Translations under genes and position numbers: made by a program
NCBI GenBank assembly: GCA_905211265.1
Contig: CAJMAC010000001.1
Span: 70,928-134,927 of the forward strand
Length of the DNA stretch: 64,000 bases
Origin: an uncultured Eubacteriales bacterium
GTDB lineage: Bacteria; Bacillota_I; Bacilli_A; RF39; UBA660
Direction: 5' to 3'
Part shown: positions 34,276 to 36,890 of the stretch, in pieces
How the letters are laid out: every line of letters begins with the position of its first letter
How positions within the stretch are numbered: position 1 is the first letter of the stretch
The notes under the pieces: model-generated
The model's input: only the letters and a program-made list of their open reading frames with translations
Database searches by the model: none
What the model was told of the DNA's origin: nothing

Positions 34276-35181
34276 ATGTATAAAAGTAATATTAATTTAA
34301 ATCTATATAAAACTTTTTATGATGTTGCTAAAAATGGAAGTATATCAAAAGCAGCACAATATAGTTATACTTCACAACCTGCAATAAGTAAATCTATAAA
34401 AAGATTGGAAGAAGAATTGGAAGTTCAACTATTTTATAGAAACTTAAATGGTGTTGAATTAACTGAAAAAGGAAAAGAATTATTATACTATGTAGAAAAA
34501 TCTTACAATAATCTCTTAACTGCTAAAAAAATAATGTTAGAGACAGATGCATTAGAAAGAGGAAACTTATCAATAGGTATGCCATCAAATATAGGTTCAT
34601 TCTTTTTGTTTGATAAAATAATTGATTTTCACAAAAAATATCCAAAAATTGAAATAACAATAATTACTGGTTCAACATCTAAATTATTAAGTTTACTTAA
34701 TTCACATAAAGTTGATTTCGTTATTGATACATCACCAATTGAAATTGAATTAGATAATGATGTTAAAATTGCTAAATTAGCAGAAGTACAATATTGTTTT
34801 GTTACCAAAAAAAACTTAAATAAAAATTATAAAAATATAACAAAACTTAAAGATTTAGAAAACGAACAATTAATACTACCAATACCAGGTACTGCCAATA
34901 GAAATGACTTAGATAAATTACTTATAAAAAACGAAGTAAAATTTAAAGATATTTTAAATATACACACAAGTGAAATGATAATTTCAGCAATAAAAAAAGG
35001 ATTAGGAATAGGATATCTTATTTATAATCTTGTAGAAAATGACATTGAAAAAAATGATTTAGAAGTACTAAACATTAAAGAAAAATTACCAACAGTAGAA
35101 ATAAACATTTTATATGATAAAGAACTATTAACAACAACATCAAAAAAATTTATTAAAGATTACATAGAATATAATTTCTAG
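34276..35181 (+). CDS. LysR-family transcriptional regulator
   Basis: Has an N-terminal HTH (GSISKAAQYSYTSQPAISKSIKRLEEELEVQLF) and a LysR substrate-binding-type C-terminal domain. Confidence 0.9.
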   Translation: MYKSNINLNLYKTFYDVAKNGSISKAAQYSYTSQPAISKSIKRLEEELEVQLFYRNLNGVELTEKGKELLYYVEKSYNNLLTAKKIMLETDALERGNLSIGMPSNIGSFFLFDKIIDFHKKYPKIEITIITGSTSKLLSLLNSHKVDFVIDTSPIEIELDNDVKIAKLAEVQYCFVTKKNLNKNYKNITKLKDLENEQLILPIPGTANRNDLDKLLIKNEVKFKDILNIHTSEMIISAIKKGLGIGYLIYNLVENDIEKNDLEVLNIKEKLPTVEINILYDKELLTTTSKKFIKDYIEYNF

Positions 35182-35248
35182 TTATATGGTACATATATAA
35201 CAATTATATACATAACAAATAATAATATAATTTATAAAAAAAAGATAT

Positions 35249-35277
35249 TTGTCAAAAAGTATCTTTTATTTTATAAT
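35249..35277 (+). promoter_or_regulatory. Promoter of the radical-SAM / NTP-pyrophosphohydrolase operon
   Basis: TTGTCA (35249-35254), 17 nt spacer, TATAAT (35272-35277), followed by SD GAAGGGAGG and the ATG at 35299. It overlaps a weak hairpin, AAAGATA (35241-35247) / TATCTTT (35260-35266), which could terminate lysR transcription. Confidence 0.6.
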
Positions 35278-35298
35278 TAAGCATGAAGGGAGGAAAAA

Positions 35299-36297
35299 AT
35301 GATAACAAATATTGGAACATTTAAAGATTATAGTGATGAAACAATAAAAACTGTATTTGATGCTGGAGATAAAAAAATAATTGAAATGTCTTTATTATTT
35401 AATAAAGAAGATAAAGATGTAATCTGTGTACCAACTCATCATTTTTGTAATTTAGGTTGTAAAATGTGTCATTTAACAAATAAGGGACTAAATAAAAAGA
35501 TGGTTCCTATAAAATATGAAGATTTTATATACTGTTTAACAGAAACATTAACTAAAAATAATATAAGGAGAACAGATAAAGAAAAATTATTAATTTCTTT
35601 TATGGGTGTTGGTGAACCACTACTAAACTTAAAACTAATCGAAGAAATATACCGAAATGAGGAAGTAATAAAAGAAAAGTTAGGATATAAAAATATTGGA
35701 TATGCATTATCAACAATGATGCCTAATAATAATATAAAAGTATTAAAAGAAATGGTTAATAAATCAAATATGCCACTTAAAGTACATTTCTCATTACATA
35801 CACCTATAAATGATGAAAGATATGAATTAATACCTAGTACAAAAGTTTCAGTTGAAGAAGCACTTGCATATTTAATTGATTATAAAAATTGTTTACAAAA
35901 AAACGAAGTATTAATGAATAAATATCAAGAGTTACATAGTAATAATATACCTGTTGAAATACACTATACTTTAATAAAAAATGTTAATGATAATAAAAAG
36001 GAATTAACAAAATTATGTGAACTATTAAAAATATATAATATACCTATAAAATTTATTAGATTTAATCCAATTAATGAATTAGAAAAAAGTACTAATGAAC
36101 AAATTTGGGTAAACAAAATTTCAGAAGAAATTCCTGAATTAAGGATTAAAACATATACTCCACCAGGAAGAGAAATTGGAAGTTCATGTGGAGAATTTAC
36201 AAAACATTATTATCACGAAGAAATTGAAACAAAAGAACAAAAAGAAGAATTTGAAAAGTGGAAAACAAAACATTTAATAAAGGAAGGAAATGAATAA
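35299..36297 (+). CDS. RlmN/Cfr-family radical SAM methyltransferase-like enzyme lacking the N-terminal accessory domain
   Basis: The segment VICVPTHHFCNLGCKMC aligns position for position with E. coli RlmN TLCVSSQVGCALECKFC (C118 plus the Cx3Cx2C cluster C125/C129/C132, recalled from memory). Other family motifs are present: FMGVGEPLLN, ALSTMMP, FSLHTP...ERYELIP, NVNDN, IRFNP, and a C-terminal GSSCGEF (the AACGQL equivalent). Cys43 here corresponds to Cys118 of RlmN, so about 75 N-terminal residues are missing. Confidence 0.75.
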   Translation: MITNIGTFKDYSDETIKTVFDAGDKKIIEMSLLFNKEDKDVICVPTHHFCNLGCKMCHLTNKGLNKKMVPIKYEDFIYCLTETLTKNNIRRTDKEKLLISFMGVGEPLLNLKLIEEIYRNEEVIKEKLGYKNIGYALSTMMPNNNIKVLKEMVNKSNMPLKVHFSLHTPINDERYELIPSTKVSVEEALAYLIDYKNCLQKNEVLMNKYQELHSNNIPVEIHYTLIKNVNDNKKELTKLCELLKIYNIPIKFIRFNPINELEKSTNEQIWVNKISEEIPELRIKTYTPPGREIGSSCGEFTKHYYHEEIETKEQKEEFEKWKTKHLIKEGNE

Positions 36298-36299
36298 AT

Positions 36300-36695
36300 A
36301 TGAATAAAGAATACATGGAAGTTAGAGAATTTCATAAAGCATTTGGACATCCAGTAGCAAACACTCCAACATTACTATCAAAAGATAGAGCCAAAAGAAG
36401 ATATGCATGGATTTTAGAAGAAATAAATGAATTTTTAGAGGCAACTGAAAAGCAAGATATAGTTGAGCAAGCTGACGCAATGATAGATACAATTTACTTT
36501 GCATTAGGTACACTAGTAGAAATGGGGGTTGAACCTGACCAACTATTTGAAATTGTACAACATGCAAATATGAGTAAATTATTCCCAGATGGAAAACCAC
36601 ATTATAATGAAATGGGAAAAGTAATTAAACCAGATAATTGGGAAAACCCACATAAAAAATTAGCATTAACAATCAACAAAATGAAAAATAAATAA
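36300..36695 (+). CDS. All-alpha NTP pyrophosphohydrolase (MazG/DR2231-like superfamily)
   Basis: Begins EVREFHKAFGHP and has the acidic metal-binding pattern ILEEINEFLEA...EQADAMIDTIYFALG...NMSK. The start lies 3 nt after the radical-SAM stop. Confidence 0.65.
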   Translation: MNKEYMEVREFHKAFGHPVANTPTLLSKDRAKRRYAWILEEINEFLEATEKQDIVEQADAMIDTIYFALGTLVEMGVEPDQLFEIVQHANMSKLFPDGKPHYNEMGKVIKPDNWENPHKKLALTINKMKNK

Positions 36696-36816: not shown

Positions 36817-36890
36817 TGGAGGACCCAGTCGGATTTGAACCAACGATCAGGGAGTTGCAGTCCCATGCCTTACCACTTGGCTATGAGTCC
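36817..36890 (-). tRNA. tRNA-Cys (anticodon GCA), CCA encoded
   Basis: The minus-strand sequence is GGACTCATAGCCAAGTGGTAAGGCATGGGACTGCAACTCCCTGATCGTTGGTTCAAATCCGACTGGGTCCTCCA. Acceptor stem GGACTCA/TGGGTCC has one G-U pair. The anticodon loop is CTGCAAC. T-arm GTTGG-TTCAAAT-CCGAC. The 3' end is CCA. Confidence 0.9.

Follow-up and report, generated by a model that had tools for sequence, protein, structure and literature searches.

A short RlmN/Cfr-like radical SAM protein that appears to represent a mostly phage-borne sister family linked to dUMP-supplying enzymes

Gene content and expression signals of the locus

The window, that is, the whole 64,000-nt stretch of DNA analyzed, contains a block of three plus-strand genes encoding a LysR-family regulator, a short RlmN/Cfr-like radical SAM (rSAM) enzyme, and an all-alpha MazG/DR2231-like NTP pyrophosphohydrolase (Table 1). 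The initial annotation, made from the sequence alone, had placed a LysR gene just upstream of the rSAM gene, where it indeed lies, and had described a 3-nt gap between the rSAM and pyrophosphohydrolase genes; the two are adjacent as stated, but the partner starts 2 nt past the rSAM stop codon (gap at 36298-36299). A LysR homolog is encoded directly 5′ of the rSAM gene in eight further loci as well (L004-L009, L073, and L074). The tRNA-Cys(GCA) gene marks the downstream edge of the block and has no functional tie to it.

Table 1. Features of the rSAM locus (positions in the window)
Feature	Position	Strand	Basis
LysR-family regulator	34276..35181	+	PF00126 + PF03466
Inverted repeat AAAAGATA / TATCTTTT, 12-nt loop, then T-run	35240..35267	+	Read from sequence
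Predicted sigma-70-type promoter TTGTCA-17-TATAAT of the rSAM/MazG operon	35249..35277	+	11/12 match
Shine-Dalgarno sequence GAAGGGAGG, 5 nt 5′ of the ATG	35285..35293	+	Read from sequence
Short RlmN/Cfr-like class-A radical SAM enzyme, 332 aa	35299..36297	+	Homology, fold, tree, residue conservation
All-alpha MazG/DR2231-like NTP pyrophosphohydrolase, 131 aa	36300..36695	+	PF01503
tRNA-Cys(GCA)	36817..36890	-	ARAGORN

The best promoter match of the region, TTGTCA-17-TATAAT, precedes the rSAM gene, and in an alignment the pattern TTTGT..-TATAAT is kept in nine loci, consistent with the earlier proposal that this gene has a promoter of its own; the promoter is nevertheless only a predicted one, because the AT-rich DNA here holds many consensus matches. 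The inverted repeat that overlaps its -35 box is likewise kept in nine loci of the alignment, with compensatory changes between the arms (AAGATA/TATCTT versus CGGATA/TATCCG), and is likely the lysR terminator, possibly an operator. The open frame extends for only four codons 5′ of the rSAM ATG (336 aa for the whole open frame), which, together with the short N-terminus found family-wide, led us to reject a mis-called start or a split gene, the former of which had already been judged improbable. An origin as a foreign island recognizable by composition was rejected too, the GC content being 21-27% over the island and its flanks and no anomaly being found.

A relative of RlmN and Cfr without the N-terminal domain

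The 332-aa protein is a genuine relative of RlmN and Cfr. Its best family match is TIGR00048 (92.5 bits, model positions 74-351), and in a phmmer comparison with Escherichia coli RlmN (3rf9), its segment DVICVPTHHFCNLGCKMC aligns with ATLCVSSQVGCALECKFC, and IGSSCGEF with IDAACGQL. Because phmmer pairs the same motifs, the motif alignment originally proposed is correct, and so is the claim that both mechanistic cysteines are kept: C43, seven residues before the cluster, is equivalent to the resolving C118 of RlmN, and C297, the C-terminal ..CG.. cysteine within GSSCGEF, to the methyl-carrying C355; the CX3CX2C cluster C50/C54/C57 corresponds to C125/C129/C132. The cluster is invariant in all 101 members of the short family, with C297 being kept in 99 and C43 in 91 of them; in the remaining 10, the position of C43 is taken by V, Y, or F. 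The GEP, SLH, R174, Y223, and N230-D231 blocks are also common to RlmN and the 332-aa protein. In a Foldseek search with the AF2 model (pLDDT 94.6), the best fold match was RlmN (6fz6; E 1e-16, TM 0.65) and the top 11 matches were all RlmN or Cfr (E 1e-16 to 2e-10, TM about 0.65), with 1.8e-10 for Cfr and only 2e-7 for the family ranking next. Given that the cluster, C297, and C43 are all kept, class-A methyl synthase activity has most likely been retained.

A structural difference from RlmN is an N-terminal domain of about 60-75 residues, found only in the latter. The initial annotation had the protein beginning some 75 residues later than RlmN and lacking this domain, and the match to TIGR00048, which starts at model position 74, agrees. 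Only 49 residues precede the cluster in the 332-aa protein compared with about 109-124 in RlmN, leaving no room for an N-terminal RNA-binding domain, which is absent. Alignments with homologs as distant as about 30% identity begin at residues 5-15 of the homolog, and the cluster is preceded by a median of 48 residues in the short family versus 109 in RlmN/Cfr; the short N-terminus is therefore a trait of the family rather than a mis-call.

The scores against the models of the characterized families are far below their cut-offs, both for RlmN (TIGR00048, 92.5 bits versus 290; NF008396, 68.9 versus 633) and for Cfr (TIGR04432, 55.8 versus 550; NF000424, 63.3 versus 530; NF011024, 54.8 versus 468). 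In the phylogenetic tree, about 100 short homologs form a clade apart from RlmN+Cfr with 100% SH-aLRT support, whereas Cfr, Cfr(C), and Cfr(D) group together, with 100% support, in the RlmN part of the tree, away from the 332-aa protein. The active-site signature differs as well, in that residues near-invariant in the short family depart from those conserved in RlmN/Cfr (given in parentheses), namely, K161 (N), H222 (E), K251 (N), Y286 (R), G294 (D), and S296 (A), the invariant residues of the short family and RlmN differing at about eight positions overall. A canonical full-length rlmN (406 bits), the presence of which had been singled out as worth checking, is encoded elsewhere in the host genome. 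Judged by these scores, the tree, and the separate rlmN, the 332-aa protein is neither RlmN nor Cfr but a member of an uncharacterized sister family devoid of the N-domain. Literature searches found no published description of the short RlmN-like family, nor of a function for its pairing with a pyrophosphohydrolase, in line with the initial annotation.

The same evidence speaks against the Cfr-like resistance role that had been suggested as one option. Cfr and Cfr(B,C,D) (TIGR04432, NF000424), 23S rRNA A2503 C8 methyl synthases conferring PhLOPSA resistance, share with the 332-aa protein the class-A radical SAM architecture, the cysteines, and the status of an accessory gene; the N-domain, however, is present only in Cfr, and nothing ties the 332-aa protein to ribosome protection. 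Flagging this gene for Cfr-like resistance on homology alone is thus unwarranted.

The short family is mostly phage-borne, jumbo phages included; cultured carriers are Tunturiibacter phage Tunturi_5, Pseudomonas phages Psa21 and Phabio, and Klebsiella phage 05F01. In bacteria it is rare and patchily distributed: within the host family, the rSAM gene is carried by 5 of 151 genomes. Homologs from metagenomes number roughly 650. Searching genome contigs for related loci with the single protein retrieved only close relatives.

Recurrent association with dUMP-supplying enzymes

The neighborhoods of the phage rSAM genes are mostly heterogeneous, and BLAST-level clustering of the phage neighbors yielded almost no conserved partners, which were instead revealed by profile searches. 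Among 150 proteins flanking phage rSAM, the most frequent Pfam family is dCMP deaminase, which is encoded directly 5′ of the rSAM gene in L013, L027, and L030 and nearby in L020. The order in L027 is MazG-like gene, deaminase, and rSAM, with minimal gaps. Genes flanking the rSAM also encode dUTPase (L046 and L024), NrdD (L024 and L034), and NrdD/NrdG (Klebsiella phage 05F01). Such links in phages are seen in each of the two major subclades into which the family divides.

Gene fusions point in the same direction. The rSAM domain is fused to a ComEB/DCTD-type dCMP deaminase in many protein clusters, seven of them identified individually, and, additionally, in genomes G106, G016, and G559, with the HAE and PCNEC motifs of the fused deaminases being intact. 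No ComEB-type deaminase other than the fused one was found in G106 or G016. A larger fusion of 670 aa, representing a cluster of 65 member sequences, combines the rSAM and dCMP deaminase with a bona fide Dut (131.5 bits versus a cut-off of 103), and in one further protein, the rSAM is joined to a nucleoside 2-deoxyribosyltransferase-like domain. The recurrent rSAM partners, all of which act around dUMP, thus couple the short family, by fusion and by adjacency in phages, to the dUMP suppliers dCMP deaminase and dUTPase, whereas RlmN has no such partners.

In the window, the partner is the 131-aa protein. Its proposed identity as a MazG/DR2231-like NTP pyrophosphohydrolase is borne out by matches to PF01503 (80.4 bits versus a gathering threshold of 21.3), PDB 3nl9 (E 8e-30), DR2231 (E 1e-6), and phrog_671 (3e-39), and by the EXXE-X(11-12)-EXXD metal motif (E41xxE44 ... 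E56xxD59), which is invariant in its alignment. DR2231 of Deinococcus radiodurans and the protein of PDB 3nl9, both all-alpha MazG-like NTP pyrophosphohydrolases, share this motif and sequence similarity with the partner; DR2231 is reported to be specific for dUTP. Phage orthologs with 50-52% identity to the partner adjoin dCMP deaminase and rSAM in L020 and L027. The pairing itself, prominent in the initial annotation, did not hold up as the defining feature. Among about 15 bacterial loci read, a MazG gene lies 3′ of the rSAM only in the window, L006, and L007, and among about 40 distinct phage loci, 2 have one near the rSAM; the MazG-like gene was found in none of the 150 other host-family genomes sampled and is, in other lineages, far more widespread than the rSAM (>1000 clusters). 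The pairing is therefore recurrent, not conserved, and is one case of the wider link to dUMP-supplying enzymes. A predicted complex of the rSAM and MazG-like proteins scored 0.00, which weighs neither way.

A candidate methyl synthase for pyrimidine deoxynucleotides

The repeated fusion and adjacency of the rSAM to enzymes that make dUMP suggest that a free DNA-precursor nucleotide is probably methylated; of the substrates proposed in the initial annotation, a free nucleotide is the one that fusions and neighbors favor. A purine product such as 2-methyladenine, the cobamide lower ligand, was considered in view of the RlmN chemistry but set aside, every recurrent partner being pyrimidine-specific. 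We propose, with a probability of roughly one half, that the 332-aa protein is a class-A radical SAM methyl synthase whose substrate is not rRNA or tRNA but a pyrimidine deoxynucleotide, free and at the dUMP node. Under this proposal, a first SAM would methylate C297, and a second would be cleaved to the 5′-dA radical, which would activate the S-methyl group for addition to the substrate at an sp2 carbon, with C43 then resolving the adduct. The monophosphate would be supplied in the window by the co-transcribed DR2231/MazG-like enzyme, converting dUTP to dUMP or dCTP to dCMP, and in relatives by dCMP deaminase and/or Dut, whether fused or adjacent. RNA adenosines are the substrates of both RlmN and Cfr, to our knowledge the only class-A radical SAM methylases characterized so far; were the sister family to use a free pyrimidine deoxynucleotide instead, class-A chemistry would reach a new substrate class and have its first enzyme with a free-nucleotide substrate.

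The simplest product would be dTMP, formed either straight from dUMP or by deamination of a 5-methyl-dCMP intermediate, by a route that would be SAM-dependent, folate-independent, and anaerobic. The product is possibly dTMP made without folate, and the more specific idea that the short family constitutes a thymidylate synthase class of independent evolutionary origin, the third after ThyA and ThyX, we regard as tentative and rather doubtful; such a radical SAM, folate-independent enzyme would methylate dUMP, or dCMP ahead of the fused deaminase, through methyl-cysteine/methylene transfer. The likeness to ThyA and ThyX is one of functional analogy, that is, a place beside, or in fusion with, dCMP deaminase and dUTPase, which both yield dUMP; there is no homology, and SAM and radical chemistry are proposed in place of methylene-tetrahydrofolate. 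Chemical reasoning offers an argument against the proposal, in that the C5 of uracil is nucleophilic and radical chemistry is not required there; a nucleophilic thiomethylene radical might favor C6 over C5.

The host genome carries thyA and folA, along with dut and a stand-alone dCMP deaminase, so the rSAM would be redundant if its product were dTMP. ThyA or ThyX is likewise present in all four other rSAM carriers of the host family tested and, counting the genome of the window, in 5/5 bacterial carriers tested. Among 31 viral records with the rSAM, ThyA was found in 10 and ThyX in 7-10; of the 9 that are at least 90% complete, 6-7 have either enzyme and 2-3 have neither. Nearly all carriers of the short rSAM thus have ThyA or ThyX too, with no genomic complementarity between the rSAM and these enzymes, and a role as the sole thymidylate synthase was rejected on account of thyA and folA in its own genome and of ThyA/ThyX in the other carriers. 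The LysR gene and the conserved promoter suggest conditional activation of the rSAM route, beside the ordinary ThyA/DHFR route. Under the thymidylate synthase reading, the rSAM would serve anaerobic phages and a few gut Bacillota as a conditional alternative to ThyA/ThyX. As far as we know, the conversion of dUMP to dTMP is served only by these two enzymes; if the product is dTMP, an added folate-independent route would bear on antifolate action, on nucleotide supply during anaerobic phage infection, and on annotation, the genes being labeled rRNA methyltransferase RlmN in phage genomes.

Alternative readings

The coexistence with ThyA/ThyX would be expected if the product were not dTMP, and the 332-aa protein could convert dUMP or dCMP to a non-canonical pyrimidine nucleotide, such as a C6-methyl or other C-alkyl derivative, or 5-hydroxymethyl-dUMP if water traps a thioether or exocyclic-methylene intermediate. 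We consider this unlikely. Such a product might serve DNA hypermodification in phages, in keeping with a family borne mainly by phages, including jumbo ones, and might be an accessory nucleotide, such as an antimetabolite, defense product, or signal, in bacteria, where the distribution is patchy. The combination of MazG, dCMP deaminase, and a base-modifying enzyme is the classic layout of phage base-replacement modules, exemplified by T4, with gp56 dCTPase/dUTPase, cd dCMP deaminase, and gp42 dCMP hydroxymethylase, and by the SPO1-type modules with dUMP hydroxymethylase; L027 resembles them in uniting an NTP pyrophosphatase, a dCMP deaminase, and a C-modifying enzyme, although the last is a radical SAM relative of RlmN in the rSAM loci and a ThyA homolog in the phage modules. 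The absence of the resolving cysteine from 10 of the 101 members fits as well, and in L004, the rSAM gene is followed by genes for a protein with a 5-hmdU-DNA-kinase helical domain and an rSAM/SPASM enzyme, but this HMUDK-like neighbor occurs in one locus only, 519 nt off. Furthermore, the bacterial loci lack dedicated kinase, polymerase, and dTTP-exclusion genes, and the fused deaminase being the only dCMP deaminase in two bacterial genomes points to mainstream dUMP metabolism. PADLOC matched neither the rSAM nor the MazG-like protein, which also led to the rejection of a known anti-phage defense system.

It is similarly improbable that the protein is still an RNA methylase, of the m2A or m8A type or specific for a new site, that acts on tRNA or rRNA without an N-domain, for example, a phage-derived enzyme remodeling host or phage tRNA or ribosomes, its nucleotide-enzyme partners reflecting co-regulation and not a common substrate. 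Its sole characterized relatives methylate RNA adenosines, with RlmN being a dual-specificity C2 methyl synthase for 23S rRNA A2503 and tRNA A37 (PDB 3rf9/3rfa, 5hr6/5hr7, and 6fz6), and both mechanistic cysteines are kept; in some phage loci, moreover, the rSAM is flanked by the translation and tRNA genes IF3, PTH2, or Thg1, and phage genome annotations label short-family genes RlmN. However, the RNA-binding domain is missing family-wide, the host has its separate full-length rlmN, the short family has different invariant residues where RlmN/Cfr conserve R (Y286), D (G294), and E (H222), and there is no rationale for an RNA enzyme to be fused repeatedly with dCMP deaminase, Dut, or a deoxyribosyltransferase-like domain.

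Action on polymeric DNA, for instance, C-methylation of adenine or uracil with the nucleotide enzymes as mere neighbors, is very unlikely despite the replication and repair genes around phage rSAM (helicase, SbcD, ligase, and DNA methylases) and the base flipping that RlmN-type enzymes perform on nucleic acids (as in RlmN-tRNA, 5hr6/5hr7), given that no DNA-binding domain was detected in the 332-aa protein, which is smaller than RlmN and has lost the nucleic-acid-binding domain, and that the fusion partners act on monomers.

As a side observation, the only part of the fused rSAM relatives that resembles a PADLOC model is the deaminase, which is similar to the dCTP-deaminase model.

A short RlmN/Cfr-like family lacking the N-terminal domain

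The radical-SAM (rSAM) protein of the window is an RlmN/Cfr-like enzyme without the N-domain, as the initial annotation had proposed. In profile searches, its top family was RlmN (TIGR00048; 92.5 bits), matched over model positions 74-351, with the Cfr models at 55-63 bits; all RlmN and Cfr scores were far under the curated cut-offs, and the Cfr-like resistance role that had also been entertained found no support. Alignment with Escherichia coli RlmN reproduced the earlier correspondence of the cluster motif (C50/C54/C57), the cysteine seven residues upstream (C43, equivalent to the resolving C118), and the C-terminal cysteine (C297, equivalent to the methyl-carrying C355), and the AlphaFold model of the protein (pLDDT 94.6) was fitted far better by RlmN/Cfr structures than by other radical-SAM enzymes. 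A mis-called start does not account for the short N-terminus: the open frame continues for only four codons ahead of the rSAM start, and most of the 278 cluster representatives recovered below 1e-10 in an exhaustive phmmer search are 280-340 aa long, with alignments that begin at their own N-terminus. The median number of residues ahead of the cluster is 48 in this short family versus 109 in RlmN/Cfr. Literature searches found no published description of the family.

For phylogenetic placement, 101 short-family sequences were combined with 12 RlmN sequences (only those without internal stops) and 3 Cfr variants in a quick LG+G4 search. A branch supported at 100% (SH-aLRT) divided the short family from RlmN and Cfr; two members, L067 and L068, formed long branches. 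Several residues are nearly invariant in the short family and differ from those of RlmN/Cfr (in parentheses), namely, K161 (N), E220 (T), H222 (E), K251 (N), Y286 (R), G294 (D), and S296 (A). The cluster is retained, as are C297 in 99 and C43 in 91 of the 101 sequences. We read this signature, together with the retained cysteines, as pointing to a conserved mechanism with an altered substrate site. In the remaining 10 members (proteins P0157, P0195, P0198, P0222, and P0234 and those of loci L054, L055, L066, L067, and L068), C43 is replaced by V, Y, or F and the methyl-carrying cysteine is intact; these enzymes may resolve the adduct differently or form another product.

Gene block and regulation

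Three plus-strand genes are embedded in minus-strand surroundings in the window, with host-like GC content all along the block; the predicted promoter, the Shine-Dalgarno (SD) sequence, and the upstream LysR gene were all located as previously described (see table).

Features of the rSAM gene block in the window
Feature	Position	Strand	Remark
LysR regulator	34276-35181	+	
Predicted promoter TTGTCA-17-TATAAT	35249-35277		5' of the rSAM gene
SD GAAGGGAGG			5' of the rSAM gene
Radical-SAM protein, 332 aa	35299-36297	+	
PRA-PH/MazG-like protein, 131 aa	36300-36695	+	begins 2 nt past the rSAM stop
tRNA-Cys		opposite to block	closing edge of the block

A LysR gene lies directly 5' of the rSAM gene in nine loci, and the LysR-rSAM intergenic region (35240-35277 in the window) is conserved in nine loci; its alignment contains a hairpin with compensatory base changes, overlapping the -35 box, and downstream of it stands an invariant TATAAT. 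This hairpin probably terminates lysR and, in addition, contributes to the promoter or operator of the rSAM gene. The upstream LysR gene and the conserved hairpin/promoter suggest that rSAM expression is conditional. In two loci (L010:1592-5939; L011:58-324), five tandem paralogues of 282-319 aa with overlapping ends replace LysR directly upstream of the rSAM gene; the two of the five that were scanned had no Pfam match.

The pairing with the MazG-like gene is recurrent rather than conserved: among close bacterial relatives, this gene follows the rSAM gene only in the window, L006, and L007, phage loci L020 and L027 encode MazG-like proteins with 50-52% identity to that of the window, and the gene was absent from 150 other sampled genomes of the host family. 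It is common outside this family, for example, in Erysipelothrix. Public annotation of its orthologues as 'HAD family hydrolase' (P0346, P0366, and P0376; e.g., in Erysipelothrix) is at odds with the Pfam and structural matches of the 131-aa protein.

Association with dUMP-forming enzymes

The conserved theme among short-family partners is broader than the MazG-like pairing. Fusion to a ComEB/DCTD-type dCMP deaminase is found in many relatives; in a 670-aa form, a bona fide Dut accompanies the rSAM and deaminase domains, and a nucleoside 2-deoxyribosyltransferase-like domain is present in one form. The sole ComEB-type deaminase found in each of the two fusion genomes tested was the fused one. 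Among 150 proteins flanking phage rSAM genes, dCMP deaminase was the commonest family, being encoded directly upstream of rSAM in phage loci L013, L027, and L030 (in L027, in the order MazG-like, deaminase, rSAM), and dUTPase and NrdD were recurrent neighbors. Searches confirmed that the MazG-like protein is homologous to DR2231. DR2231 is reported to be dUTP-specific; dUMP is the common product of dCMP deaminase, Dut, and DR2231-like dUTPase. Links of this kind are seen in each of the two major subclades of the tree. Two apparent fusions were rejected: the tail of P0049 (488 aa) is G+C-rich and of low complexity, unlike the AT-rich gene, and the deaminase remnant of P0051 (436 aa) is degraded and frameshifted.

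In Klebsiella phage 05F01 (L070; 38631-43312), the homologue is flanked by an ADP-ribosylation gene on one side and by the anaerobic ribonucleotide reductase genes NrdD/NrdG on the other; an orotate phosphoribosyltransferase-like gene is close by, and together these form an anaerobic nucleotide-supply block.

Distribution

The short family is chiefly viral, with 56 loci in IMG/VR, many from jumbo phages, 31 GenBank phage records, and Atlas clusters that are 75-89% viral. The GenBank carriers include Tunturiibacter phage Tunturi_5, Pseudomonas phages Psa21, Phabio, and D6, Brevundimonas jumbo phages, and Klebsiella phage 05F01, with 'Fe-S-cluster redox domain' or 'RlmN' as the product annotation. 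Bacterial carriers are rare (5 of 151 genomes in the host family; 2 of 399 genomes sampled across the phylum), and the chromosomal contexts of the bacterial cassette differ between them.

Proposed function and alternatives

We propose, with a probability of about 0.5, that the rSAM protein works as a class-A methyl synthase whose substrate is a free pyrimidine deoxynucleotide at the dUMP node; dTMP would be the simplest product. Of the substrates suggested initially, a free nucleotide is favored by the fusions and neighbors, specifically as a pyrimidine deoxynucleotide. Co-occurrence with ThyA or ThyX was a check that could have strengthened the dTMP reading, and it came out against it: the source genome encodes thyA-folA and dut as well as a stand-alone dCMP deaminase; ThyA or ThyX is present in the other four carriers tested and in most near-complete phage carriers. 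Hence, if the rSAM protein makes dTMP, it would provide an alternative route rather than the sole one.

One alternative product is another modified pyrimidine, serving in the hypermodification of phage DNA or, in bacteria, in an accessory role; we consider this unlikely. An RNA methylase, as the resemblance to RlmN by itself might imply, appears comparably improbable; the source genome also carries a normal rlmN (406 bits) on a different contig, answering the earlier question of whether a canonical copy exists. Action on DNA itself is very unlikely.

Several loci have features of their own. In a 77%-identical bacterial relative (L004:7509-9459), an rSAM/SPASM enzyme and a 313-aa protein are encoded 519 nt past the rSAM gene, and the 313-aa protein matches the helical domain of 5-hmdU DNA kinase (PF18723; 362 bits); the two, observed in this locus only, could be a thymidine-hypermodification-like pair beside the dUMP-linked enzyme. 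Among the thymidylate synthase matches, two of ThyX type within one 533-aa open frame (G016:C34:3544-4782) suggest a tandem ThyX, and a ThyA match within a 454-aa open frame (G107:C3:15259-16143) is possibly fused to a neighboring gene.
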